Source: a virus (Duplodnaviria > Caudoviricetes). Taken from it: a DNA stretch of 64,000 nucleotides. Position 1 is the stretch's first letter. Each line of letters starts with the position of its first letter. A model generated the notes under the pieces. The model did no database searches, was not told the origin of the DNA, and saw only the letters and a list, made by a program, of their open reading frames with translations. Positions 1 to 64,000 of the stretch are shown one piece after another. Location: positions 20,528 to 84,527 of the IMG/VR virus record IMGVR_UViG_2708742532_000007; one strand, 5' to 3'. The position numbers and the translations under genes were made by a program.

Positions 1-678
1 ATACTTACTATCATGTAAAATAAGAGTTTTATCGGTTTCCCATTTATATAACCCTTTTTTAAGAATTCGCTCATAATCACTAATAGAACCAATAGTGTTT
101 CCACCTTTATCCCAATCTGACTGACTTGTGGAATATCCACTTGTGAAATAGCCCATTGAATCGTAAACAGAGATAGTTGAAGAGTTTTTTCTTAGAAAAC
201 TTGTTGTGCTTGTTAGTTTGACACAATTTCTTATTGTCATAGAGGTAGCGGAAGAAAAAACAGAATATGAATTGTTTGGGGTATATTCAAATAGAACATT
301 ATAAAAATTCCAACTCCAATTAAATCCCATTAAATTATGACTAGTTAAATCTGTTAGAATATTATATCGACATTTTGTGATGTTTAATGTGAAATTAGCG
401 TGCCCTCCAACAGTGTTAATATACATTCCTGTTTTCTGTAGTATCTCTGTTTTTTTTCCTAGTCCAACAAAAGTTAGACTTCCACTCACAAATTGACCAA
501 ATATATTATTGCTAGTAATTTCATACGTGCCTTTTTTGAGATAAACAGTATAATCTCCATTATTTTTAATTGCTATATTATTACAGAAATATTCTAATGT
601 TTTATATGGATTGCTCGAACTTCCATTTCCTTGAGAGTCATTTCCTTTTAAAGCATCAATATAGATGTCTATTGTCAT
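1..678 (-). CDS. Tail-associated beta-helix (pectin-lyase-like) protein, runs off the window edge
   Basis: Read by hand (not in ORF track): GAGGTG RBS at 685-690, ATG 678, MTIDIYIDALKGNDSQGNGSSSNPYKTL...VYLKKGTY, a typical N-terminus of right-handed beta-helix proteins; open to position 1. Confidence 0.65.
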   Translation of the reverse strand, partial: MTIDIYIDALKGNDSQGNGSSSNPYKTLEYFCNNIAIKNNGDYTVYLKKGTYEITSNNIFGQFVSGSLTFVGLGKKTEILQKTGMYINTVGGHANFTLNITKCRYNILTDLTSHNLMGFNWSWNFYNVLFEYTPNNSYSVFSSATSMTIRNCVKLTSTTSFLRKNSSTISVYDSMGYFTSGYSTSQSDWDKGGNTIGSISDYERILKKGLYKWETDKTLILHDSKY

Positions 679-689
679 TTATTTCACCT

Positions 690-1558
690 CTAATATCAAT
701 CTTCACCCAATCATTACGAGTAATCTTCTTTCTATGAAGACTTCCTGTATCTGACCATGTATCATTCATTGTCATGCAAGAGAAATCTTCTCTTCAAACA
801 GCATGTCAACAGCTGGAGGCAGTCGAGCAGGCTAATACACAGCTCCTACCAAAGAAAGCGGCACTTCAAAAAGCGCATCCAACTCTTAGGGGAGGTATCT
901 ATAGTATATGCACTTCTCACTCTATACCTATAAATTTTTGCTTTGCTTCTGAAATAGAATCCTAAAAATCCTACTTTTGTTTTTGCATTATAATACCCTG
1001 AATCTGAGTTATCAAAGGCTCTCCAAGCAGGGTAGCTTGAGCTAAACTCATTGAGAACAAAAGCAAAACCTTGTGGAGAATATGTATTCGATGTTAAAGT
1101 AGGGGGGTATAGAGCTACCATCAGCAATTTTTCTATGTTCAACAAAATTATTTTTCTCAAAATCGCTTTTTGCAATAAAAAATTCATCTGTTACAAACCC
1201 TGCAAATAAATCAATTCTCACTTGAATATACTGCTTAGTTTCAGATTGGATAGCTCCATCTTCCGCAATAGCAATCCAGTCAGACCAATCGCTACCGTTG
1301 TCTGACACTCTTGTTAATACTGCGAATGAGCTTCCACCGTTCACTTTGTTTTCTGCAAATAATTTTTCAAAATCCTGAAAAATTTCTCCTAAATCAATTA
1401 CATCAGAAGTCCAAGAGCCTTGCTCAACATAAATAGGTCTTCCTTGACCATCAACATCAACTAGCTCTTTTATTGATTTTTGTTTTATCATGAGTTCCTG
1501 AAACACCAATGGATAGACCTATTTCTTTCTTCTCTGTATTACCACTTATAAGAGCCAT
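690..1558 (-). pseudogene. Frameshifted tail fibre/receptor-binding protein with discoidin (F5/8)-like domain
   Basis: ATG 1558 (MALISGNTEKKEIGLSIG...) hits a stop early; ORF 1048-1509 continues (GSWTSDVIDLG...WSDW...YIQVRIDL); ORF 846-1187 carries PTLTSNT...SSSYPAWRAFD; at least two frameshifts. Confidence 0.7.
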
Positions 1559-1583
1559 ATGAGTATTTTCCTATCTTAGTGAG

Positions 1584-2198
1584 TTATTTTATTGTCCAAT
1601 TAATCTGACCTGTTCTATTTGCTTCTAAAGGGGCATAGAAGCGTTCTATTTCAATCCCTCTTGATTTGAATACTAAATGACCATTCATTGATTTATTGGA
1701 AGTTAACTTGAGCTCAATAAAAGGACTTTCATTTTCTAAAGGAAGTGAAACAACAGATTGAAAGAAAAATTGAGTATCATCTTTCTTGTAAGTTGTTTTA
1801 TAGCCAAAATTAATTGACTTAATATTTGATTTCTGAATACCTTGAACGTTATTGTAGTCAGCGTAGGCTTCTTTATATGTTATAAGGTCTTTGTCCTCGA
1901 AGTTTGTTGTTAAATGATAAACCTCTGAATTTTCATCAATGTATTCAATTTCAATTCTTCTACCGTTTAGGTTGAAAGAACCATCACACATTTCAAAAAA
2001 CAGTTTCATTCCTTGACCAAACAAACCAAAACGAATGACCTGATTTTTCTGAATTAAATAAAAATCGTTTTTCTTATGCGTAAGTAGGTCATACTCTGCA
2101 TAATTTTTACCGTTTGCATAATCAGCGTTCCAGTTAAATGGAATACCGATTGCTTGATTGCTTCTTGCGTTTGCGAACATTTTATCAATCTCCTTCAT
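1584..2198 (-). CDS. Hypothetical phage tail-region protein
   Basis: 204-aa ORF in the tail operon, phage-like composition. Confidence 0.7.
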   Translation of the reverse strand: MKEIDKMFANARSNQAIGIPFNWNADYANGKNYAEYDLLTHKKNDFYLIQKNQVIRFGLFGQGMKLFFEMCDGSFNLNGRRIEIEYIDENSEVYHLTTNFEDKDLITYKEAYADYNNVQGIQKSNIKSINFGYKTTYKKDDTQFFFQSVVSLPLENESPFIELKLTSNKSMNGHLVFKSRGIEIERFYAPLEANRTGQINWTIK

Positions 2199-2232
2199 TG
2201 CATTGAAGTATTTTTCTTTTATAAATTACATA

Positions 2233-2266
2233 AAAATAGGGTAGGGGAGAAAGACCCTTACCCTAT
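2233..2266 (-). terminator. Probable rho-independent terminator
   Basis: ATAGGGTAGGGG...CCCTTACCCTAT inverted repeat with a flanking A-run (U-tract on minus). Confidence 0.55.
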
Positions 2267-2306
2267 AAAATCAATGTTTTATTTCTTAAATATCATTATC
2301 TTACTT

Positions 2307-3068
2307 TTACACATAACGGTATGAAACACGTTGCATTAACAGGTTTTTACCTGCTGACGCTGTGATAGGTACATCTGCGTACACAGAAATCTTAACAAAG
2401 TTACCGCCTGCTAGGTGAGCATTTGTTCCGTTAACATCAGTGTTGTTAGCAAAACCTAATATCTCTTTAGCATTAGGTGTTTTTTCAATTTTGATAGCTA
2501 CATATTCTACAGTACCATCAAATACAGGATTTCCTTCAACAGTTACCCATGATGAAGGCTCTGTGCCATCTGTTTCTCCTGCTTTTGTTACTTTGTAAAT
2601 AAAGTCATTTGCTTTGGTTGGTTGAACGTAAGTATCTAATGTTAATGTTTTTTTAGCAGACCAAACTTGAGCAGTAGAAGCGTTCACGTTTGTAGTAGTA
2701 CCTGTTGTACCTAAATCTTTCGTACCACTAGGGTTAGGTGTTCCTACGCCACCTTTACCAACAGGAACGAATGCATTTGCTCCTGTTTCTCCTAAACTAT
2801 CTACACGAACTTTGAACCAGTTGTCTTTAACGGCTTCAACGATATTACCTGTTGAAGTACCATCTCCACCTTTGCGGTCACGAGTTGTGAAAACTACTTC
2901 TTCCATTTTAGAGCAATCTTCTGTTTCTCCACGATTATTCCAAATGTAGAAGACCTTAGTTGCTGACGCAGAGTCAGCGTCAACAGTACCGTAGTTTACT
3001 GTGCTTTTTACTTCGTTTGCCTTTGCGTTTGTTCCTTCGTACCATGATACTCTAGGTGCTAATGCCAT
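2307..3068 (-). CDS. Tail/baseplate structural protein with Trp-rich carbohydrate-binding-like module
   Basis: 253 aa, G/T/N-rich; WSAKK..Y.V.KAG.T.GTEP.W...DG.V module shared with ORF 9402-10061. Confidence 0.65.
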   Translation of the reverse strand: MALAPRVSWYEGTNAKANEVKSTVNYGTVDADSASATKVFYIWNNRGETEDCSKMEEVVFTTRDRKGGDGTSTGNIVEAVKDNWFKVRVDSLGETGANAFVPVGKGGVGTPNPSGTKDLGTTGTTTNVNASTAQVWSAKKTLTLDTYVQPTKANDFIYKVTKAGETDGTEPSSWVTVEGNPVFDGTVEYVAIKIEKTPNAKEILGFANNTDVNGTNAHLAGGNFVKISVYADVPITASAGKNLLMQRVSYRYV

Positions 3069-3085
3069 AATTAAATTCCTTCTTC

Positions 3086-4243
3086 CTAGTTAATTTTAAT
3101 CTTTATATTTACTGTCAGGTTGTATGTGTCATTATCAAAAGTAGTCACATTCAACCTGAAAATATCATTTTTGTTAACTTTTGATTTTGTTAACTTGTGT
3201 AGTCTACTATCTTTGTGATTTCCTGCTTTGATGTTTACAGGGCTATTGATAATAGTAGACCAATTGACGAAATCTTTAGAAATTTCGACGTCTATTACTG
3301 TATCAACAGTTCCTTTTTTTGAGACAAATGCTTCAATATCTAAGATTTCTCCATTATGAGGGAATACTACATGAGGGTCTTGAACACCTTGTAGAACTTC
3401 TTGAGGACAAATGAAAACAATAGTTCTGTAATCTGTTTCAGAACTAATGCCTTCCATTTTAACATAATGTTCTTTTGACATAAGACCATCATATTTTTCT
3501 GTAGCATTTGGAACGTTACCGCCTAAAGAATCTATCGGGATCCAATCCTTACCATTCCAACGATAACGAATACCTGTGTCATAAACTTGAACAGTCCAAC
3601 CAACATGTGGGTTAGGATACTTCTTCGCTATATCAGCCTGTGTTTGTACAAAAGGTTGATAGATTAATACAGTAGTTTCATAGGCATCTTTGATAAGCTC
3701 AATGTGTTGTAGAGCTTTATCATTTGTTTCAAGAACAATATCAGTAGCTTCTTTTGTTAGGTTTGTAGCGACAATCATATTATCTAAAACTTCTTCAAAA
3801 TTAGCAGTTTGACCGATTAACTCCTGAACCTGAGTTTTAGCTTCCTCAATGATTTTAAATAGTGTTTCTGTGCTATCTGTGCCATCGTAGTGAATAATCC
3901 TATTGGAAGGGTACAGAATAACGCCTCTACCTTTATACATGATAGAAATTGTTTCAGCTTCTCTATCAGCATTAAAGTAGATGAAACCATTTGTATAGTC
4001 ACAATAAAACTCATTTTTTCCTAGACTGCTCTTAATAAACTTTTCATAGTTTACTTCAAACATGTTTGCAATCCTTACTCGATATAGTTCATCAGGAATC
4101 TCTAATAGAGCCACACGTTGATTAACTACACGAGTAATGTCTAATCTATCAACAAATGGGTCGCTAGGTGTTCCTTTACGCCAAACTATATGAATAGGAT
4201 TATTAAATTCTAAATAATTTATTGGTTGTTTTGTTACTGCCAA
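3086..4243 (-). CDS. Baseplate/tail fibre protein
   Basis: 385 aa; GWTVQV...YRWNGKDW and ATEKYDGLMSKE motifs typical of phage fibre proteins; downstream of spike. Confidence 0.65.
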   Translation of the reverse strand: MAVTKQPINYLEFNNPIHIVWRKGTPSDPFVDRLDITRVVNQRVALLEIPDELYRVRIANMFEVNYEKFIKSSLGKNEFYCDYTNGFIYFNADREAETISIMYKGRGVILYPSNRIIHYDGTDSTETLFKIIEEAKTQVQELIGQTANFEEVLDNMIVATNLTKEATDIVLETNDKALQHIELIKDAYETTVLIYQPFVQTQADIAKKYPNPHVGWTVQVYDTGIRYRWNGKDWIPIDSLGGNVPNATEKYDGLMSKEHYVKMEGISSETDYRTIVFICPQEVLQGVQDPHVVFPHNGEILDIEAFVSKKGTVDTVIDVEISKDFVNWSTIINSPVNIKAGNHKDSRLHKLTKSKVNKNDIFRLNVTTFDNDTYNLTVNIKIKIN

Positions 4244-4256
4244 ATTCTCACCTTCT

Positions 4257-4721
4257 TTATGAACCTATTGTTACAGTAGAACTAGCTCCACCATTAATCT
4301 TAGAACTAGTTCCTGCATGTGTAGTAACAGTAGAGTTGTCAGTAGCAACAGACTTACCATTAATAAATACATTGTTACTATTGCCAACTGTTACTGAGCC
4401 TTGAGCATTAGTGTGAGAACCACTAACATATACGCCACCGCTAGGTAGCGAATATGAGTCATTCTCTGTGGTTTTGTCACCTTGGACAATTGGAGCTTTA
4501 CCTTCAATCGTTACGTTTGATACTGTCGATACTGCTTTCCCCTTTACTGTTGCAGATGTTGGATATTGAACCCAATCATTGATAGGGTAGGTTGGTACAT
4601 AATCACCCCATTGGTCATAATATCCTCCACCTGTGTCTACTTGCTCAAGCACCTTATAAATAATATGGTTAGATGCAGTAGTATCAGATATTGTTGCGTC
4701 TTTGAGTGCTATCTTTGCCAT
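4257..4721 (-). CDS. PAAR-like spike tip protein
   Basis: SNVTIEGKAPIVQGD...GSVTVGNSNNVFINGKSVAT...H...SSTVTIG repeats resemble PAAR/gp5.4; immediately follows the spike gene. Confidence 0.7.
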   Translation of the reverse strand: MAKIALKDATISDTTASNHIIYKVLEQVDTGGGYYDQWGDYVPTYPINDWVQYPTSATVKGKAVSTVSNVTIEGKAPIVQGDKTTENDSYSLPSGGVYVSGSHTNAQGSVTVGNSNNVFINGKSVATDNSTVTTHAGTSSKINGGASSTVTIGS

Positions 4722-4732
4722 ATAGAATCCTC

Positions 4733-7700
4733 CTAGTTTAAGCTAATCTTAGTTCCTTTAACTTCTACGCCACTTGCTGAAATTTTGATGTAGTTATTAG
4801 TGTCAAAACGAATCATCAGATTATCCTTTTCAAGAGAAATCCATGAATATTGACCAAATTGCATTTTAGCATCTTGCCCTTTAACAACTCTGAAAAACTC
4901 ATACAGGTCAGTCTTAGCAACGAATTTTTTATCAGAGTGGAATCGAACTCCACCTTTAGACTCGAAGTAAACTGCTTGTCCTGCATCATCTGTATCTGAC
5001 TCATTGAAGTAGAACTTAGTCATAACTCCATTAGGTGCGTCATACTCAATAGCAAACTTTTTATTGTCCTTATAGACTTTTGCTTGCTCAGAACCACTAC
5101 CATATCCTCTGCCATTTCCTGAACCGAAAATCATAACAGGGAAGGAAGTATCGCCTGTACCTTCGTAAGTGAACTCTAACTTTGTTTTTTCACTACCTGA
5201 GAAGAAAGTATTAAATCTCATGAAGTTTTTAGCAATATGGATAATATCTTGTTTTGTATTTCCTTTTCCAAGTGTTTTCAGACTATTAACTGTTAAGTCA
5301 GAGATGTATGAGCCATCAATATCCTCAATCATTTTATCATCATCACCCATGATATATAGCTTTTTAGCAAATAGTGAGCCATCAGTATCAACCCAAAATC
5401 TATCTTCGCCACTTTTTGTTTTAATTCTTATAGCGTCATTGGCATTTAAGAATATATCAGCGTTTTCGCCATAGATTGAAATACCTTTTTCATGGTCAAA
5501 AACAATTCTCTCACCTAAGTCACCATCAACAATTTTTAAGTTGTGAGTAGTAATGTCTTTTGCATAAAGTCTTCCATCCAAACCAACCCAAAACTTTCTA
5601 TCTCCATCGACTTCGATTTTAATAGCGTCATTGGCATTTAGATAGATTACAGCACCGTTGTTATCACCGGAAATTGTGATTCCATCATACCAATCAAAGG
5701 TGATTTTCTCGTTCATGTGAGCGTCTACAATGCGTAGGTTCTTTGTTACAAGACCTTCTGCAAACAATGTACCATCTTCCCACATAGGGTCGCCTAGAGT
5801 GGCAAATAGCTTACTAACCCATCTTCCTTTTTCCCATTTTTGAAGGGCAAGACCATTTGTAGCATTTAGGTAAGCTCTGTATCTACCATCATTACGAACA
5901 GCAATAAAGCCAAAGTCATTCATAATTAGGTTGTTGTAGTATTTACCCATATTAATACCTGAGTAGAAGATTGAGTCTTCAATTGCTTGCTTTAGCTTTT
6001 GTGATTGGTCGTGGTATTCCCTAGACACCTGAATGAAATAACCTCTATCAGTAACTTCACTTGTTTTTTCCATAAGAGGATGTTGTTGGTCTATATCCAA
6101 TGACTTATCTCTATCTATACCTTTTTCTGTGATAGGGATGAATTGAATGAGGTAGTCTACAAGCGCTGTATAAGCGTTTATAAGGGGGTGTGTATCAAAT
6201 CTCTCGATATTTGACTCAATTGTTGGGAAACTGCCTTTAAGGGCATCCCACTGTCCGTTAATGTCTGTTAGATTGTCTCTATCACTCTTGTTGTATTTCT
6301 CAGCGTGAGTGAGAAGGGCTTTGTAGTCAGCATGTATGCGGTGTAAATCTGTAACAATTTGTAGCTTTTCTAAAGTTGTTAATTTTCCATCAGCAACGAT
6401 TTTGTCTAATTTAGCTATGTTAAAGATATTATTCTCTGCATCTAGAATAAGGTCGCCAATATCATTGACTATCTTAATTCCTTCTGCAACCATATGTTTT
6501 GTATAAAGTGTGCCATCAGTATTAGCCCACATGACTTTTTGCCAATCATTATCTTTCCATCTTGAAATTGCAAAACCAACACAGTCAGTTACTTCAACTT
6601 TCGTGACAGTATTCCATGATTTAAGACCGAAACATTCGCCTTCTTCTTGACGGATTATATTATCAAATTCATCTCTTAGGTTATCTGAAACAAGACCTAG
6701 CCACATAACTTCTTTACCGTCTGCATTGTAGATAGTAGTTCGTGAGCCTTGAGTTTTCCATGCTCCTAATTCATCTTCGATATACAGGTTAACACCTGAG
6801 ATAAGTTTACCGAAAATGTATTCTCCCCAAATACCATCTTTTGAGATAGCGTGTTTCCATGTGTTACCTCGGTCATTTGTAATAGCCAAGAAACCATTTT
6901 GTATAACTAGCCAACTATCAGGGTCTTCAAGTGACTTTACGATAATACCACGCTCTGAAATAGTAATTTGTTGGTCATAACCTGCTAGTACAGCATTCTT
7001 TAGTGAATCCCACTTACTATTAATAAGGTCATTGATTTTACCGTTGTTTTCTTTTGATAGATTCCAACCATCTTTGTCCATTGAAACAATAGTAGAAGTG
7101 AGGTCTGCTTTGTTAAGCAAGTCCATCAGTAATTCACTACCATCTTTGAGGTCTTTCTCATTAGCAATAGTCAATGTGATTTCAAAATTCTCAAAGTCAT
7201 AGTTAATCTCAATGATTTTTGCTAGGATATTAACTTTGAGCCTATCGTATCGTATTCTGATACTGTCACCTAAGCCTAGTTTGTCCCAATCATTTTGACA
7301 TTCTATAATAGATAGGAAGTCAATAAGACTTACAGTTAGCTTGATTTTTGGCTCTTGGTTTTGCTTGAATACAGTCTTAGCTTCTTTCATTAAAGCTTCA
7401 GGGTGGGTGATAGAGTCATTTGTGTATTCTTGGACAATGATGAATTCTTGTAACTCAGCCCATTCTTCATTAGTGAAGTTAGCAGATGGTTTAAGCTTAT
7501 CTAAGTGAGCTTGTTTTTCTCGCTCTGCGTCTTCTACATCAAATCTAGCGTTGTCAACAACTGTCTTTTGATTAGATTCTTCAATCTCTTTTGCTCTAAG
7601 TTTCTCAATTATCTCAGCATGTTTTTCTGTGCCATCTTTTGTACCTCTGTCATTGTATCCATCAGTACCCCAAAGGCTTTTATCAGTCTGAAAGTCAGCT

Positions 7701-8746
7701 AAAAGAACATCTCTTTCATCTTCTAATAGCATTCTCTCTACTGTGATTGTTGAAAGTCTATCAGACTCGATTGTAAGGATATCTTGTAGTGCCTCTATTT
7801 TCTTAGAGATGATTTCAAAGTCGCTGTCTAAGCTTTTAATTAAGTCCTCATACTTTGTTAGAGCAACACATAAGTTATCACTCATGTAGTCTGAGCTTTT
7901 AATTACTTTTTCTAATTCTTTATCATATTCAAATGGGTACATATAAAAAGAGAAGTCCTGAATATAGTCTTCTCCTAGTGGGTTTATTTTTCTGAAAGTT
8001 AATCCTTCTGAACCAAAGGCTCTTAGGCGTGTAACCGTTGAGCTACTATCAACTGATAAGTCAAAGCTTTCTAAGTATTTTCCATCTCGAATATAAAATC
8101 CTTTGTTTAGTCCTACATTCTCAGCTCTGTGAAACTCGATTTTTAAGTCCTCAGTGTTCCACTTAATGACAGCATTCCACTTAGTAGCAATGTCATACAT
8201 GACTTCTAAAATAGACATAGAGCTTACGGTATACTTTCTTTCTGCTGTTTCAGAAGTAGTGAAGTAGCTGTCAACATAACCAATCGTCCAACGCTTAATA
8301 GGGACTTCTAACAAGCTACCGTAAACATCTTCAAGTACACCATCTGCAACATCTTTTAAGTTACCAATTTTTTCGTATTCTCGAATGTTTTTGTCACCTA
8401 ATTGAACACCTAGCGAATATGCTCTGTATTCAATATAATCTTCATCACCATAAGTTTTGTTAGATTCATTGAAAAGAAAATACTCAGTTGTGTTGCCAAC
8501 AACATATTTAAAAATATATCTGTGCTTAATACGCTCGATATTTGGATTGTCCATAGGAACTTCATCTTTAATAATGATTGTTGGAATCTTGAATGATAGC
8601 TCATTAACTGTACTTAACTTTGTGTAGTATTGTACATCATAGGCTTCATTAATTTTTGCTATAGTGTCTTTGTTTGGTTTACATAGAAAAAGACTTTTCT
8701 TAGGTAGTTTTAGGTTATAATCAATTTCACCTATCTTCACTGTCAT
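4733..8746 (-). CDS. Tal/hub protein fused to long tail spike (YomG-like)
   Basis: 1337 aa; N-terminal prophage-tail/Tal domain (LFLCKPNK..I..NELSFKIP, VTRLRAFGSEGL), coiled coil, internal repeats, beta-strand C-terminus IKISASGVEVKGTKISLN. Confidence 0.8.
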   Translation of the reverse strand: MTVKIGEIDYNLKLPKKSLFLCKPNKDTIAKINEAYDVQYYTKLSTVNELSFKIPTIIIKDEVPMDNPNIERIKHRYIFKYVVGNTTEYFLFNESNKTYGDEDYIEYRAYSLGVQLGDKNIREYEKIGNLKDVADGVLEDVYGSLLEVPIKRWTIGYVDSYFTTSETAERKYTVSSMSILEVMYDIATKWNAVIKWNTEDLKIEFHRAENVGLNKGFYIRDGKYLESFDLSVDSSSTVTRLRAFGSEGLTFRKINPLGEDYIQDFSFYMYPFEYDKELEKVIKSSDYMSDNLCVALTKYEDLIKSLDSDFEIISKKIEALQDILTIESDRLSTITVERMLLEDERDVLLADFQTDKSLWGTDGYNDRGTKDGTEKHAEIIEKLRAKEIEESNQKTVVDNARFDVEDAEREKQAHLDKLKPSANFTNEEWAELQEFIIVQEYTNDSITHPEALMKEAKTVFKQNQEPKIKLTVSLIDFLSIIECQNDWDKLGLGDSIRIRYDRLKVNILAKIIEINYDFENFEITLTIANEKDLKDGSELLMDLLNKADLTSTIVSMDKDGWNLSKENNGKINDLINSKWDSLKNAVLAGYDQQITISERGIIVKSLEDPDSWLVIQNGFLAITNDRGNTWKHAISKDGIWGEYIFGKLISGVNLYIEDELGAWKTQGSRTTIYNADGKEVMWLGLVSDNLRDEFDNIIRQEEGECFGLKSWNTVTKVEVTDCVGFAISRWKDNDWQKVMWANTDGTLYTKHMVAEGIKIVNDIGDLILDAENNIFNIAKLDKIVADGKLTTLEKLQIVTDLHRIHADYKALLTHAEKYNKSDRDNLTDINGQWDALKGSFPTIESNIERFDTHPLINAYTALVDYLIQFIPITEKGIDRDKSLDIDQQHPLMEKTSEVTDRGYFIQVSREYHDQSQKLKQAIEDSIFYSGINMGKYYNNLIMNDFGFIAVRNDGRYRAYLNATNGLALQKWEKGRWVSKLFATLGDPMWEDGTLFAEGLVTKNLRIVDAHMNEKITFDWYDGITISGDNNGAVIYLNANDAIKIEVDGDRKFWVGLDGRLYAKDITTHNLKIVDGDLGERIVFDHEKGISIYGENADIFLNANDAIRIKTKSGEDRFWVDTDGSLFAKKLYIMGDDDKMIEDIDGSYISDLTVNSLKTLGKGNTKQDIIHIAKNFMRFNTFFSGSEKTKLEFTYEGTGDTSFPVMIFGSGNGRGYGSGSEQAKVYKDNKKFAIEYDAPNGVMTKFYFNESDTDDAGQAVYFESKGGVRFHSDKKFVAKTDLYEFFRVVKGQDAKMQFGQYSWISLEKDNLMIRFDTNNYIKISASGVEVKGTKISLN

Positions 8747-8755
8747 TCCTCCTGA

Positions 8756-9409
8756 TTATTCTTGTAGTAGTATTGCTTTGTGTCTAAAATCAAGGTCAAA
8801 ATCACCCTCAGATGTGATATAGTTGCTTCCTCGAATTAGCTCAAGGTATTCATCATTGTGTGAATCATACCTGTAAACACCGTTAACTTGATTGCTTGAT
8901 ACAATCTCTTCATTCTCACAATCAATGTAAACTTCTTCATTGTTATTAAGGTCTTTGAACTCAACTCTCTGACCTGTGGTAAAGTTAATGATTGCAATAT
9001 CACCTTTACCGTTTTTCTTTCTCATCCAAATTTTAGGTTTAATAGGGAAGTCACCTGTGTTCTCAATAAATCCATATGGCTTTAATTCAATTTCTAAGGA
9101 TTGTAGATAAGGTTTTATAGCTTCATTATCTGCAACCATGACTATCTGAAATTGGATATATAATCCTGTCAAAACATATTCATCTAAGAGGTCATAAGAA
9201 GTTATAAACAATCTCTTCCAATCAGTCCAATCAACCTGATTATAGGAAACTCTAAAATTGTATTCTACTGTTTGGTTGTGAATGTTGATTAATGTTTCTT
9301 TGATGTTTGCAATATATCTATCTAAGTTATTTGAGATAAAGAAGGTAGGGGAAGTATAGACCCCTCTAGGAACGCTTAATCTTGACCAAGTAGTCATAAT
9401 ATCACTCAA
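8756..9409 (-). CDS. Distal tail protein (Dit) C-terminal part with N-terminal extra domain
   Basis: IENTGDFPIKPKIW...NNEEVYIDCENEEI...HNDEYLELIRGSN resembles the C-half of YomH-type Dit. Confidence 0.65.
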   Translation of the reverse strand: MSDIMTTWSRLSVPRGVYTSPTFFISNNLDRYIANIKETLINIHNQTVEYNFRVSYNQVDWTDWKRLFITSYDLLDEYVLTGLYIQFQIVMVADNEAIKPYLQSLEIELKPYGFIENTGDFPIKPKIWMRKKNGKGDIAIINFTTGQRVEFKDLNNNEEVYIDCENEEIVSSNQVNGVYRYDSHNDEYLELIRGSNYITSEGDFDLDFRHKAILLQE

Positions 9410-24520: not shown

Positions 24521-24523
24521 CTA

Positions 24524-46532: not shown

Positions 46533-46541
46533 TATCGGAGA

Positions 46542-48748: not shown

Positions 48749-48778
48749 AAAAAGAGTAGGAAAAACTACTCTTTTTTT
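48749..48778. terminator. Bidirectional terminator
   Basis: AAAAAGAGTAG-GAAAAA-CTACTCTTTTTTT. Confidence 0.65.
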
Positions 48779-49643: not shown

Positions 49644-49679
49644 TTCCTAAGGATATTTTTATTGATTGGAGAAGATGAT

Positions 49680-53717: not shown

Positions 53718-53834
53718 GCTCATATTCTTACTACAGGAAGGAAGGAAGTTATATTCTATAAATGAAATTCAAGACATATGTCTATGTTTCAAATGTGACA
53801 AAGTAAGATTTCGTAGAATTTAGCGACAAGTTTA

Positions 53835-55095: not shown

Positions 55096-55652
55096 ATGAT
55101 ATATATAAGTGAAGCGAGAGATATGGTAGATGAAACAATTGAAGAAAACGAAATGCAACAATGGGAATCACTTAATCCAATAAGTTCAATGCAAGAAATT
55201 TTAGGTTTAATGCAAACTTTAGAACAAAACTTTTTCATAGCCAAAAAAATGGAGGAAGGCTTAAATAATCGACAAGGCGATTTATTACATGCACTTGAAC
55301 TTGACCTAGATAGAAAAGAAATTAATGCTGTTTACAGGGCGAAACGCGAAATACGATTTAAGCGCAGAGATATAAAAGACATACTGATTAATTTAGTAGA
55401 AGCTCAAAACTTTATCAAAGCAAATTACAAATTTATTAATGAGTGTAATGAAGCCATAAAAAAAATGCAACGCACATCTCAGAAGGTTTCTAATCGCAAG
55501 TACTCTTATGCAATTGTGAAGCACTAGCAAAGGTCATTGATTTGGAAAATCACCCTGATATTATTCCTTTTATCCCACAAGAAGAAAGACAAAGTACAGA
55601 ATTAATGTCACAAGTTGAAAAGTTCAGTCAAAGATGGGGTAAACAAAAGTGA
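55096..55652 (+). pseudogene. Coiled-coil hypothetical gene with a 3' frameshift
   Basis: After RKYSY another frame continues NCEALAKVIDLENHPD...WGKQK* to about 55652. Confidence 0.5.
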
Positions 55653-57739: not shown

Positions 57740-57964
57740 GTGGTTATTCTTTATACACGCACAGTATGCCCAAAGTGTACTTTAATCAAAACACTTCTTG
57801 ATTCAGCAGAGGTGGCATACGAACAAGTCAACTTAGACTTTGATGAAAAAGCAGAAGTGGAGCTAAAGGAAAAAGGATTCATGGGCCTACCTATCGCACT
57901 TGATGAAGGTCAATATTATGCTGACGTTCCTTCAATTCAGGCTTTCATTGCTCAAAAGGCATGA
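57740..57964 (+). CDS. nrdH: Glutaredoxin-like NrdH redoxin
   Basis: LYTRTVCPKC, GFMGLP; heads the nrd cluster. Confidence 0.85.
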   Translation: MVILYTRTVCPKCTLIKTLLDSAEVAYEQVNLDFDEKAEVELKEKGFMGLPIALDEGQYYADVPSIQAFIAQKA

Positions 57965-58344
57965 TAGCCTACGCTAGTAGAACAGGTAACGTGAGAGATA
58001 TTGTGGGAAGACTAGATAAGTCTATTCCTATAAGGGAGATTACAGCTAGTACTATTGTTCAAGACCCCTATTACTTACTAACTTATACAGATAAGCTAGG
58101 GGAAGCGCCTGAGGTAGTAAGACAATTCCTATCTTCACATGAAGAAAATAGGGAAAATCTTAGAGGTGTAATCGCAAGTGGTAACACAAATTTTGGAAAG
58201 CGGAATTTTTGTGGCTCTGCTATTGAGATCTCTCAGTGGTTAAGAGTTCCAATAATACGCATGATTGATCTGCGAGGTAATCAGGATGATATAGCAACTA
58301 TTAGCAGTAGCTATAGAAAAATGATTGCAGGTGAACAAGTTTGA
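57961..58344 (+). CDS. nrdI: Flavodoxin NrdI
   Basis: YASRTGNV, LTYT, RGVIASGNTNFG..FC. Confidence 0.93.
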   Translation: MIAYASRTGNVRDIVGRLDKSIPIREITASTIVQDPYYLLTYTDKLGEAPEVVRQFLSSHEENRENLRGVIASGNTNFGKRNFCGSAIEISQWLRVPIIRMIDLRGNQDDIATISSSYRKMIAGEQV

Positions 58345-60434
58345 AAAATTATTTAATGTTAAACAACGAGGTTCTTAATACTTACAAAACATTGGGTATT
58401 ATTGACCGAAAGAAGGACAGAGAAGCTACAAGTGACTTCTTCTTTGAAGAGATCAATCGTAAAACAATGTTCTTCCATACGCTTGAAGAAAAGATTAACT
58501 ACATAAAGCGTGAGAATTATTATGAAAAGGAATTCTTAGACAAATATTCATTTAAGTTTGTCAAGAAAATCTTCAAACTAGCTTATGATTATAAGTTTAG
58601 ATTCCCAACGTTTATGAGTGCTAGTAAGTTCTACAGCTCATATGCACTAAAAACTCGTGATGGAAACAATTTCTTAGAGCGGTATGAAGATAGAATGGCT
58701 ATAGTTGCCTTATATCTAGCTCAAGGTAAGCGTAAAGACGCTGAGGATTGGATTCATTACTTAATGCGTAGTTACCAACCTGCAACACCAACTTTCATTA
58801 ATGTTGGTAAGAAAGCTCGCGGTGAGTTTGTGTCATGTTTCAAGATTGCTATGGCAGACAACATGAACTCAATCGCTCACAATATCGGAAATGCTCTACA
58901 GCTGTCGAAGCTAGGTGGTGGGGTTGGTATTTCACTAACTGATTTACGTTGTGCAAAGGACCCAATCAAAGGCATTGAAAACCGAGCGTCAGGTGTTATA
59001 CCTGTTGCTAAGTTGCTAGAGAACTCATTCTCATATGCAAATCAATTAGGTCAACGAGCAGGTTCAGGCGTTATTTGGCTCAATGTGTTTCATGGTGATA
59101 TTGAGGACTTTATCTCAGCTAAGAAACCAAATGCAGATGAAAAGATTCGCCTTGCTACTTTAAGTACAGGTATCATTTTCCCTGATATTTTCTTCGAGTT
59201 AGCTCGTCAGGATAAGGATATTGTTCTATTCTCTCCTTATGATATTAAGAATGAGTATGGTAAAACTATGTCTGAAATCTCGATTACTGACATGTACTAC
59301 GAGTTACTTGATAACCCTAACATTCGAAAACTGAAACGCATTAATGCACGTAAGTTATACACTGACATTAAGAAATCTCAAATTGAGAGTGGTTATCCAT
59401 TCGAAATGTTTGATGATAATGTCAACAAAGCACACCCATTGAAAAAGATTGGGCGAGTGAAAATCACTAACCTATGTACAGAAATCATGCAATTAATGGA
59501 AACCTCTGAAATCAATGATTATGATGAAGTAGATATTATTGGTCTTGATGTAAGTTGTAACTTAGGCTCACTTGATATTCACAATGCAGTTAAAGAAGAA
59601 GACTTCGATAAGTTAGTTAACGCTTCAATGCGGATGCTTACACAAGTTTCTCTATTAACTAACATTAACAATGTGCCTGCGGTTGCTCGTGCTAACCAAG
59701 AAATGCACTCAGTAGGATTAGGTGTTATGAACCTCCATGGTCACTTTGTTTCTCAGGGTATCATGTATGGAAGCGAGGAAGCCAACGAGTTCATTGACGC
59801 TTTCTTCACTGCATTAAACTACTACTCTATTAAGGCTTCTGTAGAGATTGCAAAGGAACGTAAGAACAAATTCTATCGTTTCGAAGATTCTGAGTACGCA
59901 AGTGGTGAATACTTCGAGCATTACTACAGAAAAGAACTAGTAATTACTTCTGAAAAAGCTAAACAGGCGCTAGGCAATGTTCCAATCATCACTATAGCCA
60001 TGTGGAAAAAATTAGCTCAAGAAGTTAAAAAGCATGGTATGTTCCATGCATACAGATTGGCAATTGCACCTACAGGTTCAATTAGTTACATTAGAAGCTC
60101 AAGTGCTTCAATGTCACCAATCACAGAGCGTGTAGAAGTGCGAGACTACGCTGATTCGAGAACAATTTACCCCATGCCTTACCTTGATAATAACAACAAA
60201 CATCTTTATGTTGAAGCATACGATATGGATATGTTTAAGATGATTGATTCCTACGCAATCGCTCAGAAACACGTTGATCAAGCTATTTCAATGACATTGT
60301 ACATTAAAGATAATTGGACAACAGAACAGTTAGCTAAAGTGTATATTTACGCATGGCTAAAAGGGATTAAATCAGTCTACTATGTGCGACAACGTATGCA
60401 AACAATTGAAGAATGTGAAAGTTGTTCAGTATAA
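58341..60434 (+). CDS. nrdE: Class Ib ribonucleotide reductase alpha
   Basis: YQPATPTF, VSCF, LSKLGGGVG, TNLCTEI, SCNLGS, APTGSISY, C-terminal CESC. Confidence 0.97.
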   Translation: MKNYLMLNNEVLNTYKTLGIIDRKKDREATSDFFFEEINRKTMFFHTLEEKINYIKRENYYEKEFLDKYSFKFVKKIFKLAYDYKFRFPTFMSASKFYSSYALKTRDGNNFLERYEDRMAIVALYLAQGKRKDAEDWIHYLMRSYQPATPTFINVGKKARGEFVSCFKIAMADNMNSIAHNIGNALQLSKLGGGVGISLTDLRCAKDPIKGIENRASGVIPVAKLLENSFSYANQLGQRAGSGVIWLNVFHGDIEDFISAKKPNADEKIRLATLSTGIIFPDIFFELARQDKDIVLFSPYDIKNEYGKTMSEISITDMYYELLDNPNIRKLKRINARKLYTDIKKSQIESGYPFEMFDDNVNKAHPLKKIGRVKITNLCTEIMQLMETSEINDYDEVDIIGLDVSCNLGSLDIHNAVKEEDFDKLVNASMRMLTQVSLLTNINNVPAVARANQEMHSVGLGVMNLHGHFVSQGIMYGSEEANEFIDAFFTALNYYSIKASVEIAKERKNKFYRFEDSEYASGEYFEHYYRKELVITSEKAKQALGNVPIITIAMWKKLAQEVKKHGMFHAYRLAIAPTGSISYIRSSSASMSPITERVEVRDYADSRTIYPMPYLDNNNKHLYVEAYDMDMFKMIDSYAIAQKHVDQAISMTLYIKDNWTTEQLAKVYIYAWLKGIKSVYYVRQRMQTIEECESCSV

Positions 60435-60453
60435 AAGAAGGTGTTATAGATAA

Positions 60454-61464
60454 ATGGAAGTATTATCAGAAAGAGCGTATATACAAAAAAGATTTGAAAA
60501 AGTCTTTGAAGCTGTCAATTGGAATAAACAATTAGGCTTACATGAGGTCTTTTGGAAACAACAGGTCAAGCAGTTTTGGTTGCCTGAGGAAGTAGCTGTA
60601 TCTAAAGATCTTTTAGGTTGGAAGCAATTTGAGTTTCAAGTAACCTATATGCGAGTTTTAGCAGGGCTTACTTTACTAGATACAATTCAAACTAACGTAG
60701 GTATGAATGAGCTTTCACGCTTTGTTAAGAAACTACAGCAGAAAGCATTGTACTCTTTGTTTGGGGCGTTTGAAGCAATTCATGCTAAATCATACAGCTA
60801 TATCTTTACAACACTTGCAACGAACTCTCAGATTGATGAAGTATTCGAATGGGTTAAGACCAATCCATATCTTCAATATAAAGCGAGTAAGATTGAAGCA
60901 ATTTACTCAGCTATTAAAGAAGATGATGATGTTTCACTATGGAAAGCGCATTTTTCTTCTGTGATGTTAGAATCATTCCTGTTTTACTCAGGGTTCTTCT
61001 ATCCACTTTACTTAGGGGGACATGGGATACTTAAAAATAGTGCTGAGGTTATCTCATTAATCGTCCGTGATGAATCAATTCATGGGGTTGCAGTAGGTTA
61101 CGAAGCTCAGGAAATGTTTAAGACGTTTGATAAAGCAACTCAGGATGAATTAAAGATTTGGGGCTATGAGCTTTTAGCAGACCTTTATATCAATGAGTTA
61201 AAGTACACAGATGATGTGTACGCTGAAACAGGGGTAGGTGGTAAGGTTAAGGCTTATGTGCGCTACAACGCAAACAAAGCTCTAATGAACTTAGGCTTAG
61301 ATACTATGTTCCCTGACGAAGAAGTAGACCCAATTGTTTTGAACGGTATTCGTACTGATTCAGTGACACATGATTTCTTCTCACAAAAGGGCAATAGTTA
61401 TACAATGGCTAATGTTGCACCTATCACTGACGAAACATTCAACTTTAAAGGGTACAATATTTAA
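60454..61464 (+). CDS. nrdF: Class Ib ribonucleotide reductase beta
   Basis: FWLPEE, LTLLDT, EAIHAKSY, LESFLFYSGF, RDESIHG, HDFFS. Confidence 0.97.
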   Translation: MEVLSERAYIQKRFEKVFEAVNWNKQLGLHEVFWKQQVKQFWLPEEVAVSKDLLGWKQFEFQVTYMRVLAGLTLLDTIQTNVGMNELSRFVKKLQQKALYSLFGAFEAIHAKSYSYIFTTLATNSQIDEVFEWVKTNPYLQYKASKIEAIYSAIKEDDDVSLWKAHFSSVMLESFLFYSGFFYPLYLGGHGILKNSAEVISLIVRDESIHGVAVGYEAQEMFKTFDKATQDELKIWGYELLADLYINELKYTDDVYAETGVGGKVKAYVRYNANKALMNLGLDTMFPDEEVDPIVLNGIRTDSVTHDFFSQKGNSYTMANVAPITDETFNFKGYNI

Positions 61465-61617
61465 TTGGCGCTATCAAAAAATAATATAATGATATTAAAT
61501 AGAAAAATATTATTGGCGTTCAATCAAAACGCTGATAACACTAATGCAGAGCTCGAAGCCAACAAAAAGCTTCAAGATAAAATAAAACAACTCATCAAAG
61601 GAGATACAGAATAATCT

Positions 61618-62346
61618 ATGCAGAAGCAATTTGTAAAACCACAGGTTAAAGATATTGTCTTTGACCGTAAGCAAAAATTTGAAGGGCGAGTATCTTATAT
61701 CAACTTCCAAAATAAAACAGCAAAAATTGAAGTCATTGTTGATACAAATAAAGAGCTTCAACAACGTACAACAGAGCTTGTTGAATCCAAGCTGTACGAC
61801 TTAATCGTGTTGGAGAAACATCCTCGTAAAGAGTTTGACAAAAATCGCCATTTTACACTCGTAAAAGAGTTCCAAAGTGCTTTTAATCACCCTGTAGCTG
61901 AGAAGCCAACAGCAATTGGAGCAGAAAGAGGTTTAAAACGTACAATTTGGGTAGGTGAGGAATTAGTTGAGTTCCTACACGCTTGCTCAAAAGACAAAGA
62001 ACAGTTCGCTAAACTTTATTATGCTTTCCTCGAAGGGCTAGGTGAAGCATACAAGAAGTCACTAGCAACTAATTTCATCCAAGATAATACTGAGCGTATT
62101 GTCGCAATGGCAGACGCTCTAATAGACTCAGACTACTTCCTTAAAGGCTCGTTTGTGGAATTAGGTGTACTACCACAACAACTATTCGAAATTGTCCATG
62201 CTTCTAACATGAGCAAGTTGTTTACTGACGAAAATGGTAAAAAGCACCCTAAATATCGCGAGGATGGGAAAGTTCTTAAATCACCTGAGTTCTTCCCACC
62301 TGAACAAAAATTGAAAGAAGAAGTTTTACGTCAAGCTCAAGCTTAA
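61618..62346 (+). CDS. MazG-like all-alpha NTP pyrophosphohydrolase with N-terminal SH3-like domain
   Basis: VKEFQSAF.HP, EELVEF, ADALID, VHASNMSK, REDGKVLKS. Confidence 0.8.
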   Translation: MQKQFVKPQVKDIVFDRKQKFEGRVSYINFQNKTAKIEVIVDTNKELQQRTTELVESKLYDLIVLEKHPRKEFDKNRHFTLVKEFQSAFNHPVAEKPTAIGAERGLKRTIWVGEELVEFLHACSKDKEQFAKLYYAFLEGLGEAYKKSLATNFIQDNTERIVAMADALIDSDYFLKGSFVELGVLPQQLFEIVHASNMSKLFTDENGKKHPKYREDGKVLKSPEFFPPEQKLKEEVLRQAQA

Positions 62347-62393
62347 TGTATTAGCAGGGGGGTACCCTGCAATTTCTCTAAGAGGTAAACGAT

Positions 62394-63041
62394 ATGCAAA
62401 ATTTCTCTAATACAGAGTGGGAAGGCCTAACAGAAGAAGAGGTTTTTCTGTTAAATCGAAGACTAGTTATTACTACAGTTAGAAGAAAGTTTCCTAATAA
62501 TCAATACTTTTGTAAAGCTCATATGCTTGATCTAGATGATTTAGTGCAACTTGGGAACATAGGGTTACTAAATGCAATCAGAACTTTTGAGCCTATTAGA
62601 AAGAGTTCATTTCGAACGTATGCAATCAACTGTATATCATGGTCTATTTCTACCAATGCAAAGAAAGAATCTCTACGCACAGTTAATACTCAATCATATG
62701 ATTTAGCTAATGTTATGAGTGTAGATACACCACTTAATATGAATGGCAATGAGGAAGAAGCGGTAATTTTCCTCAACACCATAGAAGCAAATGAAAATAC
62801 TAGCGAAACTGCAGAAGGTAACTTGTTTCAGCAGCAGGTTATTGAGTTCTTAAAAGCAGATAAAGATATAGATGATGAATTGTTATATATTCTTATTGCT
62901 AGAACAAAAGAGAAAACAATGAGGGAGATTGCCAAACATTTTGACAAGCACCCTAACGCAATCAGTCAACGATTAAAAACTCAGAAAGCTATTCGAGTTA
63001 AAAATCGCTTGAGGAAATTTTTGAAGAATAGAGATTATTAA
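62394..63041 (+). CDS. Phage sigma-70 family sigma factor
   Basis: Region 2 DDLVQLGNIGLLNAIRTF...SFRTYA; region 4 TMREIAKHFDKHPNAISQR. Confidence 0.85.
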   Translation: MQNFSNTEWEGLTEEEVFLLNRRLVITTVRRKFPNNQYFCKAHMLDLDDLVQLGNIGLLNAIRTFEPIRKSSFRTYAINCISWSISTNAKKESLRTVNTQSYDLANVMSVDTPLNMNGNEEEAVIFLNTIEANENTSETAEGNLFQQQVIEFLKADKDIDDELLYILIARTKEKTMREIAKHFDKHPNAISQRLKTQKAIRVKNRLRKFLKNRDY

Positions 63042-64000
63042 TGTACCAAACAGCAGATAAGCAATACAACACAATTATTCAACAAATTCTAGATAATGGT
63101 ATTATGGATAGTCCTGAGCATGTGCGAACTGTCTATGAAGATGGAGAGAAAGCACCTACAAAAGCGATTATCAATGTACAGATGAAATTTGACAATAGTA
63201 TAGATGCTATTGTGTTAACAACAAAACGAGTGCCATTGAAAGACCCAATCAAAGAACTATTTTGGATTTGGCAGAAAATGTCTAACAAAGTCTTTGACCT
63301 ACAGCAAATGGGCTGTCACGTTTGGGATGAATGGGAGCTTAAAGATGGAACAGTCGGAAATGCTTACGGTTGGCAACTTCGCAACAAATACCAGCGAATT
63401 ATAGCTGACAGAACATTCCTAGAGATGGTTCGAAATGGAGAGTTATCTGAGAAGCCTGATGAAGTTCTTTCGGATGAAGAATTTGAGAACGCTGTGGCTT
63501 ACTGTGAGGAATACATAGAGTATGTTGACTTAAATCAAGTGGATTACTTATTGTACATACTTAAAAAGAACCCTCACTCACGTAGAATTAAGACTACTCT
63601 GTGGTGTGTAGAAGACTTACAAGAAATGGCTTTACAACCATGTGTGTATGAAACACATTGGCAACTGTTTGATGGAAAGTTGGCACTTACTGTAAATATC
63701 CGTTCTAATGATATGGCATTAGGTAACCCTTATAACATCTATCAATACTCAATTTTGCACCGATTAATCGCACAGGTGACAGGTCATGAAGTTGGTGAGT
63801 TGTGTATCAACATTGATAACGCACATATCTATGACAGACACTTAGAGACTATCGAGAAGCAGATTAAGGGAGAGTTGCATGAGCCTCCTACAATTTGGAT
63901 TAACCCTGAAGTAAAAAGCTTCTATGACTTCACAGTGAATGATATTAAGGTTCAAGATTACAAACATAATGGTACATTCTCTTACGAAATTGCTATATAA
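63041..64000 (+). CDS. thyA: Thymidylate synthase
   Basis: TTKRV, ELFW, VWDEW, AYGWQ, SRR, ALQPC, RSND, GNPYN, HIYDRH; TAA at 63998-64000. Confidence 0.96.
   Translation: MYQTADKQYNTIIQQILDNGIMDSPEHVRTVYEDGEKAPTKAIINVQMKFDNSIDAIVLTTKRVPLKDPIKELFWIWQKMSNKVFDLQQMGCHVWDEWELKDGTVGNAYGWQLRNKYQRIIADRTFLEMVRNGELSEKPDEVLSDEEFENAVAYCEEYIEYVDLNQVDYLLYILKKNPHSRRIKTTLWCVEDLQEMALQPCVYETHWQLFDGKLALTVNIRSNDMALGNPYNIYQYSILHRLIAQVTGHEVGELCINIDNAHIYDRHLETIEKQIKGELHEPPTIWINPEVKSFYDFTVNDIKVQDYKHNGTFSYEIAI

Follow-up and report, generated by a model that had tools for sequence, protein, structure and literature searches.

The 64,000-nucleotide stretch of DNA analysed here (the window) corresponds to positions 20530-84529 of contig C53 in a Lysinibacillus genome (G000; 5.16 Mb, 57 contigs), and is the core of an SPbeta-like element, with an inferred size of about 127 kb, lying between yfkB and a HAD-hydrolase gene. 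The evidence gathered below suggests, at about an even chance, that this element is a grounded, headless prophage derivative whose tail set has been kept for the production of free particles resembling F-type tailocins. The window is organised in two divergent arms, with all large open reading frames (ORFs) from 28076 down to 1 on the minus strand and all those from 28312 to 64000 on the plus strand, and the sign of the GC skew flips near 28 kb, that is, where the arms diverge. When 67 proteins of SPbeta (SPBc2, NC_001884) were run by tblastn against the whole G000 genome, 21 found matches on C53 in the same order as in SPbeta. The minus arm carries homologues of YonK, YonJ, YomW, YomV, YomU, YomM, YomI (tape measure), YomH, YomG and YomF, followed by a YomC-like lysin left of the window, and the plus arm those of YopQ, YopR and then YorF through YorM. 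The SPbeta-type tail matches (YomW, V, U, M, I, H, G and F) stand at 24-33% identity, and a megablast search of window positions 17000-32000 against phage records gave zero matches.

The central observation is the loss of the head. In SPbeta, about 10 kb between YonJ and YomW are occupied by YonH, YonG, YonF (terminase), YonE (portal), YonD, YonC, YonB, YonA, YomZ, YomY and YomX. The YonJ-like and YomW-like genes of the window are separated by only 1.4 kb, and none of the 11 SPbeta proteins from YonH to YomX matches anywhere in G000 (tblastn, E<=1e-3). For the portal family of YonE (phrog_2739), G000 yields nothing at E<=0.1 and G048, a genome from another species of the genus, a single match on a different contig from the headless element found there. 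The initial annotation of the window, made from its letters and ORFs, had claimed that terminase, portal and capsid genes were missing and had proposed a genome-wide search with hidden Markov models of head genes. That search returned only non-cognate hits inside other prophages, the G000 matches to Terminase_6N, Phage_capsid and phrog_2 being confined to contigs C44, C56, C57, C20, C30, C10 and C15. The claim is thus borne out by the SPbeta proteins, by the phrog families and by the ORFs of relatives described next: no terminase, portal or capsid gene was found in the window or on C53, and none of the cognate type genome-wide.

Five head-bearing relatives (contig C107 of G048, the closed genome G001, and prophages in G243, G259 and G192, which are other genera of the same family) have their head and packaging genes, about 9-11 kb in all, at precisely this position. 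From YonJ to YomW the series comprises a YonG-like gene, TerL, the portal, a YonD-like gene, scaffold-sized and capsid-sized genes, 2-3 small genes, a gene of about 105 amino acids (aa) and a YomX-like gene. Forty-nine head-region ORFs taken from four head-bearing relatives were searched against the whole G000 genome, and only the YomX-like and the ~105-aa YomY-like ones matched, at 22041-22827. The TerL, portal, YonD and capsid homologues among them had no match whatsoever, and neither a YonG-like nor a TerL remnant was found in G000 by this search. The ~105-aa gene matches an intact 102-aa ORF, and the YomX-like gene matches a stretch read in 2-3 frames. The junction is therefore built as follows.

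21386-21907, minus strand: YomW-like tail terminator with the lambda gpU fold, the first intact gene of the tail block
~22041-22508, minus strand: YomX-like connector pseudogene, frameshifted over 2-3 frames, partly deleted in two public run assemblies (X2 and X9)
22516-22824, minus strand: intact YomY-like gene, 102 aa (phrog_5523), lying directly upstream of YomX in relatives
22825-23084, no strand: ORF-free spacer of 260 bp, the scar of the ~10-kb head/packaging deletion
23085-24778, minus strand: an 81-aa ORF, a YonJ-like exonuclease (23336-24520, phrog_284) and a YonK-like gene (24524-24778)

Since only the YomX- and YomY-like ORFs of the head region still match, the scar is placed in the ORF-free interval and the YomX-like gene was inactivated separately. 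The comparison with relatives indicates that one ancestral deletion took the whole packaging and head module, that is, the YonG-like gene, TerL, portal, the YonD-like gene, scaffold, capsid and two connectors. The broken head-closure gene of the initial annotation is confirmed as this frameshifted YomX-like gene, upstream of the terminator. The YomW-like protein was modelled with AlphaFold from an alignment of 6 sequences (mean predicted local distance difference test, pLDDT, of 77). In Foldseek the model retrieved lambda gpU (E 3e-4, probability 1.00), further siphophage terminators, that of T5 among them, and collar proteins from diffocin and R2 pyocin. Because the first intact gene is a terminator of the gpU fold, the deletion boundary falls at the head-tail interface. 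Pfam gave no match for the YomV-, YomW- and YomY-like proteins, the 81-aa ORF or a 160-aa ORF of the tail block.

That the element is instead a complete phage, with its head genes hidden in unassembled or unplaced sequence, seems very improbable indeed. Both assemblies (G000 and G048) do break left of the endolysin, and one 4878-base contig is given as N, yet 4878 bases are too short for a ~10-kb module and the contigs that join the break (C36-C39) hold only paralogues of receptor-binding protein (RBP) genes. The left flank, yfkB on contig C1, runs straight into a cassette repeat, and in the five relatives the head genes sit exactly at the scar. Cognate head genes elsewhere, which according to the initial annotation would have spoken against a headless element, were not found genome-wide by family searches or with the 49 and 11 head proteins. 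A position right of the window was ruled out as well, the ORFs there showing no phage families and being collinear host genes in G048.

The identical headless junction is present in four genomes, namely G000, G048 and contigs of runs X2 and X9. In G048, contig C20 carries the element collinear from the lysin to the host flank, between the same yfkB and HAD flanks, and is 92.3% identical to G000 over 21880-23400. The two differ there by five indels of 1-26 bases in 21953-22374 (the YomX-like remnant and the stretch towards YomW) and by one 1-base indel in the spacer. Four public run assemblies were compared, two of which bridge YomW and YonJ without head genes: X2 in a 75-kb contig spanning 16790-30000 and missing exactly 22073-22317, and X9 in an 8.6-kb contig spanning 17547-26554 and missing 22023-22492, with 39 other letters there. 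X3 gave no match and X13 yielded 43 short non-bridging pieces. Because the junction is shared and its erosion differs, the head deletion is ancestral to the four genomes, the pseudogene having eroded independently since. A YonJ-like query matched 3 of 49 genomes of the genus at E<=1e-20 (G000, G048 and a 27%-identical match in G022), and a YomV-like query 5 of 370 genomes of the family, G000 counted.

The second line of evidence is selection. The ratio of nonsynonymous to synonymous substitution rates (dN/dS) was calculated by the Nei-Gojobori method on concatenated codons, with bootstrap intervals, for one pair, G000 against contig C20 of G048. It covered the 72 of 95 ORFs (>=60 aa, C53:1-100000) that had a reciprocal best hit, all of them intact in both genomes. 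The 23 unpaired ORFs are mostly RBP paralogues or small ORFs, those in the window being 30889-31128, 31483-31722, 35527-35715, 49035-49481 and 55096-55527. The values obtained were the following.

17802-21907, proximal tail: dN/dS 0.206 (0.113-0.367), dS 0.035
22516-28076: dN/dS 0.176
Early and regulatory genes: dN/dS 0.192
Replisome: dN/dS 0.150 (0.120-0.187), dS 0.119
Nucleotide genes: dN/dS 0.149, dS 0.054
Lysis genes: dN/dS 0.171
Host flank: dN/dS 0.159, dS 0.162
YomX-remnant ORF: dN/dS 1.11 (0.62-3.08)
1584-10660, distal tail: dN/dS 0.148, dS 0.86

Judged by these substitution patterns, purifying selection constrains the retained genes for proximal tail, lysis, regulation, replication and nucleotide supply as tightly as it does host genes. 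The comparison of orthologous loci called for in the initial annotation thus showed a fixed locus, a shared head deletion and dN/dS<1 for both proximal tail and replisome. Its own argument, that the longest genes would be the first victims of random decay and that their survival is therefore selective, is replaced here by dN/dS and a stop-codon test; the outcome supports selective survival for the proximal tail, the replisome and the nucleotide genes, and the intactness of the distal tail proved of little use as evidence. For several distal tail proteins the nearer counterpart lies in a head-bearing element (G048:C107 or G001) and not in the headless one of G048:C20; a 204-aa protein is 73% identical to C107 versus 58% to C20, and a 769-aa protein 72% versus 40%. 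The tape measure has a dS of 0.48. Such exchange of the distal tail by recombination means that its constraint reflects evolution in other elements and says little about selection in the headless state.

These data bear directly on the possibility that the element is an inactive relic, either a dead prophage that has not yet decayed or one refreshed by recombination with functional SPbeta-like phages, yielding neither particle nor benefit. Prophage inactivation classically begins with the loss of head and integrase, the distal tail was swapped with head-bearing relatives as just described, the dS of the proximal tail is just 0.035, and coding density (ORFs >=60 aa) is low in 22000-40500, at 65-66% versus 97% in the tail block. 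This last figure does not establish that the small accessory genes are broken, as had been annotated, since small real genes would look alike. A relic is nevertheless unlikely, in view of several observations. The dN/dS of 0.15-0.21 over 11,259 low-divergence codons equals that of the host flank and stands beside 1.1 for the adjacent pseudogene, and neutrality would have introduced 45-127 new stop codons in those codons at 3-9% substitution per site. Only the YomX-like gene and one tRNA-like sequence are degenerate, which is not the picture of a decaying cryptic prophage, and in all four genomes the same genes have stayed intact while the pseudogene has eroded in a different way in each. No donor for such refreshing is in sight, since the proximal tail and YonJ have no head-bearing relatives closer than 45-59% identity. 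A plain decaying relic does not fit because the retained genes are constrained like host genes while the adjacent connector decays. Nor does the alternative anticipated in the initial annotation hold, that of a strain-specific, recent deletion with neutral dN/dS.

The third line of evidence is the tail itself. The minus-strand tail block runs unbroken from 21907 to 1584, including a 7155-nucleotide ORF (10661-17815) and a 4014-nucleotide ORF (4733-8746), as had been claimed for the genes from terminator to PAAR protein. Following the terminator, the genes are these.

20631-21386, minus strand: YomV-like protein, all-helical (AlphaFold pLDDT 83)
19826-20593, minus strand: YomU-like tail tube, matching solved tail tube chains (e.g. 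8k98, E 3.5e-43)
18775-19731, minus strand: two small genes (152 and 160 aa) between tube and tape measure
17802-18761, minus strand: YomM-like protein of the tyrosine-recombinase fold (phrog_1), 31.6% identical to SPbeta YomM and 99.1% to G048
10661-17815, minus strand: tape measure, 2384 aa, with Peptidase_M23 and phage tail lysozyme domains
8756-10660, minus strand: three baseplate genes, two Dit-like (10061-10660 and 8756-9409) and one for a phrog_20658 protein (9402-10079)
4733-8746, minus strand: Tal/YomG-like minor tail protein, 1337 aa (phrog_6211, E 4e-208)
4257-4721, minus strand: PAAR-motif protein, 154 aa (28.7 bits, cut-off 27)
2307-4243, minus strand: a 253-aa protein and a 385-aa YomF-like distal tail protein
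1048-2198, minus strand: gene pair with which each RBP cassette opens, 153 aa and 204 aa (phrog_11178), with degenerate copies in contigs C36, C37 and C39
1-678, minus strand: 3' part of a 465-aa receptor-binding-like paralogue (LamG/discoidin-type) in the first amplified RBP cassette, which continues left of the window
C53:7274-8029, minus strand, left of the window: amidase endolysin (phrog_3088, E 6e-82), intact, dN/dS 0.146

The set is that of a complete non-contractile tail (terminator, tube, tape measure, Dit, Tal and RBP), no sheath family having turned up in any family scan of the tail block. It is accompanied by a lysis cassette of its own, consisting of the amidase endolysin and small upstream genes, one of them a candidate holin-like gene. 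Because this constrained, complete and sheath-less tail operon has its own lysis genes, the production of free tails would be its most economical function. Tail length follows a rule of about 0.15 nm per tape-measure residue, from which a tail of ~350 nm is estimated for the 2384-aa protein. The 152-aa and 160-aa genes are, by position, putative tail-assembly chaperones. For the YomV-like protein, a protein search found closer relatives (one of them 87% identical), and sequence searches of the PDB with the YomV- and YomW-like proteins gave no match at E<=1. The YomM-like gene overlaps the start of the tape-measure gene, a placement conserved in SPbeta and in G001, and it might conceivably help to rearrange the repeated cassettes that lie close by. 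Immediately after the Tal gene comes that of the PAAR-motif protein, in a tail that has no sheath; PAAR tips are more familiar from contractile systems.

The element exceeds the window, leftwards to the start of C53 and probably on through C36-C39 to yfkB on C1, and rightwards by ~330 bp. The minus strand left of the window holds seven RBP-like paralogues (LamG and discoidin-type; phrog_17517), a 769-aa and a 726-aa protein, small genes and the endolysin, beyond which a second set of RBP paralogues reaches the start of C53. Contigs C36, C37, C38 and C39 (9-11 kb each) contain RBP paralogues exclusively, and their ends lie in repeats shared with C53, namely 300 bp like C53:11398-11703 and a remnant of the lysin 3' end. 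At its right end, C1 carries host genes (the gerA operon, tauE, a luciferase-like gene and yfkB) that run straight into the same lysin remnant and 300-bp repeat, which identifies yfkB as the left host flank. The RBP cassettes are thus most probably located between yfkB and C53, as judged from shared repeats in an unclosed assembly, and the size of ~127 kb is the sum of 84.9 kb (C53) and 42.2 kb (C36-C39). Fifty-two ORFs of C53:1-22038 and C36-C39 form one single-linkage blastp family, and phrog_17517 matches 35 places in G000 versus 4 in G048, 4 in G001 and 0 in G022. The RBP genes of G000 are amplified into at least five cassettes of 7-10 genes each, uniform in direction and separated by scars made of the endolysin 3'-end remnant, the 3' end of the 769-aa gene and degenerate copies of the 204-aa gene. 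Downstream of the lysis genes, on the yfkB side, lie the extra cassettes, which might serve as a store for cassette exchange or as an arsenal of several specificities.

At the right border, homology to host DNA of G001 starts ~330 bp past thyA. Between the HAD gene and its thyA-like gene, G001 encodes a serine recombinase of 607 aa; at this place G000 and G048 have only ~330-455 bp. Matches to YokA, representing the SprA/YokA-type serine integrases, occur in G000 only on C33 and C14, with none at the element end. The serine recombinase of C33 was considered as the element's integrase and ruled out, since the LexA-like repressor of another prophage is adjacent and the left flank lies on C1, not on C33. 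The region itself (C33:373598-375779), with a large serine recombinase and a LexA-like repressor (helix-turn-helix and S24 peptidase) 2-4 kb from the contig end, is the border of that unrelated prophage. With its integrase gone the element is fixed in place: its flanks are the same in G000 and G048, and G039 shows an empty site, where yfkB and a homologue of the gene at C53:87120-88412 are 4 kb apart. Only four genomes are known to carry the locus. Having lost both head module and integrase, the element can neither form virions nor leave the chromosome.

These findings also weigh on the idea of a helper-dependent element, whose tails or DNA would be used with heads from a co-resident, head-bearing SPbeta-like phage. 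Contig C107 of G048 does hold a complete SPbeta-like prophage with TerL, portal and capsid, whose distal tail is 42-73% identical to the window; the replisome and the YomY-like connector have also been kept. Against this, G000 is devoid of any SPbeta-type portal or terminase, there is no integrase or excision gene at the element end and no YonG-like or TerL remnant that could direct packaging, the YomX-like connector is decaying in all four genomes, and the helper candidate of G048 owns a full tail module. A phage satellite would have its own integrase and a matching helper; G000 has neither, and G048 holds a possible helper. Dependence on a helper is therefore quite unlikely.

The plus arm and its boundary with the late genes carry the remaining functions.

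27564-28076, minus strand: sigma-factor-like protein heading the minus-strand (late) genes
28312-30756, plus strand: RecD/exonuclease V-like helicase, 814 aa (phrog_4412)
32029-34368, plus strand: lysogeny-control pair, YopQ-like (32029-33342, phrog_5732) and YopR/MrpR-like (33346-34368, phrog_5830)
38623-40440, plus strand: helix-turn-helix/replication-initiator-like protein and RuvC-like resolvase
40571-54614, plus strand: replisome block with YorF-, YorG (Sak4)-, YorH-, YorI (helicase)-, YorJ-, YorK (RecJ-like)-, YorL (DNA polymerase III alpha)- and YorM-like genes
57740-64000, plus strand: NrdH, NrdI, NrdE, NrdF, a MazG-like protein, a second sigma-like factor and ThyA (Pfam)

The initial annotation had described the repressors, the replisome, nrdHIEF and thyA as uninterrupted, and all of them hold up. 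The YopQ- and YopR/MrpR-like genes are intact, 97.5% and 97.6% identical to those of G048, and match the SPbeta pair at 26% identity (E 7e-38 and 2e-16); the lysogeny-control function of this pair is taken from PMC10516654 and PMC8612738. The YorF-to-YorL-like part of the replisome (40571-53717) follows SPbeta order with tblastn E values from 7e-32 to 0, and the YorL-like protein, a 1351-aa ORF at 49662-53717, is 53% identical to SPbeta YorL over 1323 aa. The nrdHIEF and thyA genes are confirmed by Pfam. In SPbeta, late genes are transcribed by the single-subunit RNA polymerase YonO. The 814-aa ORF was considered as a YonO candidate and ruled out in favour of a RecD-like helicase, and no YonO homologue was matched by tblastn in G000.

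Just upstream of genes on either arm stands an oriented motif, AAAAGTAAnnTAATGATAT, which always points the way of transcription; its copies are at 2290, 28240, 42700, 46524, 54641, 55094 and 61487. It came from a k-mer screen with k=9, a screen with k=12 having given nothing. The motif probably acts as a promoter for a transcription programme of the element itself, one that includes two sigma-like genes. Weaker copies of AAAAGTAAnnTAATGATAT occur at 23131, 32166, 36502 and 63706.

Such an endowment could be thought to have been kept for functions other than a particle, with replication and repair, nucleotide, regulatory or exclusion genes selected and the tail genes as passengers. The replisome, nrdHIEF, thyA and the MazG-like gene are indeed under purifying selection, and genes of this kind can directly serve a host. 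This explanation is nonetheless decidedly improbable. The host owns thyA and ribonucleotide reductase genes elsewhere, so that the retention of the element's extra thyA and nrdEF copies is not explained by host need. Moreover, the proximal tail is equally constrained (0.206, upper bound 0.367), the tail block shows no break over its 21 kb and has a coding density of 97%, and passengers would be expected to decay as YomX has.

The preferred reading, that of a headless prophage derivative making free tails, leads to the following model. Induction would lift the YopR-type repression, and the early genes would replicate the locus in place, replication in situ being proposed because the element cannot excise. 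The sigma-like factors would then switch on the late operon, free tails would assemble up to the terminator and be released by the lysis genes, and the released tails would act on related cells in the manner of F-type tailocins. An extended version pictures a self-amplifying, multi-specific tailocin caught mid-domestication, in which in-place replication by the element's own replisome and dNTP enzymes would raise the template number of the 21-kb tail operon and ~50 RBP paralogues in at least five recombining cassettes would let the tails kill a wide and changing range of competitors; taken as a whole it is doubtful, and self-amplification in situ, considered by itself, is speculation. The initial annotation had read the loss of the head as domestication. 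The old shared deletion, the purifying selection and the fixed locus support domestication as such, and tail particles remain an inference.

Several points weigh against free-tail production. The particle is predicted from gene content and substitution patterns. Selection was measured on a single genome pair and on ORFs intact in both members, which in the proximal tail differ by only 49 nucleotides. The dS of the proximal tail (0.035) and of the nucleotide genes (0.054) is below that of the host flank (0.16), so that some parts may have moved between species recently, and import of distal tail genes from head-bearing relatives could refresh them with no selection in the headless state. The YomY-like connector is still intact, and the model of the YomV-like protein had no PDB fold match in Foldseek at E<=0.001. 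The left part of the element ends at contig breaks in both assemblies, with the 4878-base contig given as N adding to this. Finally, the full replisome, intact and with a dN/dS of 0.150, is an anomaly for a tailocin.

Two features of the late arm stand apart from this argument. The tRNAs had been annotated as broken, which is true of one and not of the other.

26067-26143, minus strand: tRNA-Arg (TCT), intact
25075-25145, minus strand: degenerate tRNA-like sequence (Rfam 48.7 bits, several mismatched pairs, no ARAGORN call)

A long AT-rich hairpin (25286-25375) lies between the degenerate tRNA-like sequence and a 96-aa ORF; its sub-threshold hits to plant microRNA precursors are chance stem-loop matches.

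Among the nearest known systems is SPbeta (Spbetavirus), with which the element shares the replisome order from YorF to YorL, YopQ/YopR, YonK/YonJ, the tail module, divergent arms, phage nrd genes and a lysin ending the late arm. The element differs from it in lacking the YonG-YomX block, an SprA-type serine integrase and YonO, in having two sigma-like factors instead, in carrying thyA, in its RBP genes, which are of another type and amplified, and in its Lysinibacillus host. The prophage of G001 (C1:3243000-3400700) occupies the same insertion site in the same orientation (HAD gene to yfkB). Both it and G048:C107 resemble the element in the distal tail and the 769-aa, 726-aa and 148-aa proteins (42-74% identical) and in the order of tail, RBP cassette, lysis genes and yfkB. 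They differ in having kept integrase, YonG, TerL, portal, YonD, capsid and connectors, with one RBP cassette each, and their replisome is distant from the element's (DNA polymerase 23% identical in G001).

In Bacillus, defective prophages of the PBSX type are domesticated, non-infective and inducible killing particles of spore-formers; PBSX keeps small heads and a contractile tail and is not known to carry a replisome of its own. With F-type tailocins (Listeria monocin, F-pyocin and rhizoviticin), as portrayed in PMC11830787 and PMC10811719, the element shares headless siphophage-type tail genes, a lysis cassette, a fixed locus and diversified RBPs. Those are small tail clusters, whereas the element, known here from its genes, keeps ~35 kb of early, replisome and deoxynucleotide (dNTP) genes and its own lysogeny switch. 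It is not a canonical tailocin, because the definition given in the review PMC12090994 excludes replication genes. Efagins of Enterococcus faecalis (bioRxiv 10.64898/2025.12.13.693970) are likewise chromosomal tail-like particles of a Gram-positive host in which head genes are fully absent; they are reported to be species-wide, whereas the element has been seen in only four genomes so far. That preprint describes evolutionary intermediates as scarce. In the limited literature searched on tailocins and SPbeta (including PMC13492144) no headless SPbeta-like element was found, and a limited search by title and abstract for Lysinibacillus with tailocin or SPbeta prophage gave nothing relevant. No paper among the matches listed paired 'tailocin' with 'in situ replication' or 'escape replication'.

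Tailocins are thought to derive from prophages that lose head, packaging and replication genes, and convincing intermediates are rare. The element is likely such an intermediate between a virus and a tail-shaped bacterial weapon, in which the order of loss is visible: the head module and integrase went first, decay of the connector came next, and the replisome is still kept. Head-bearing relatives at the same chromosomal site allow direct comparison, and the selective regime after the loss is purifying. The element thereby offers a test system for asking whether a replisome can serve the gene dosage of a weapon, how RBP amplification originates, and whether SPbeta-type tails of ~350 nm can kill Gram-positive cells without DNA. 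Should the self-amplifying version hold, no earlier tailocin would be known to have kept and used a phage replisome, and the element would be a living link between prophage and tailocin.

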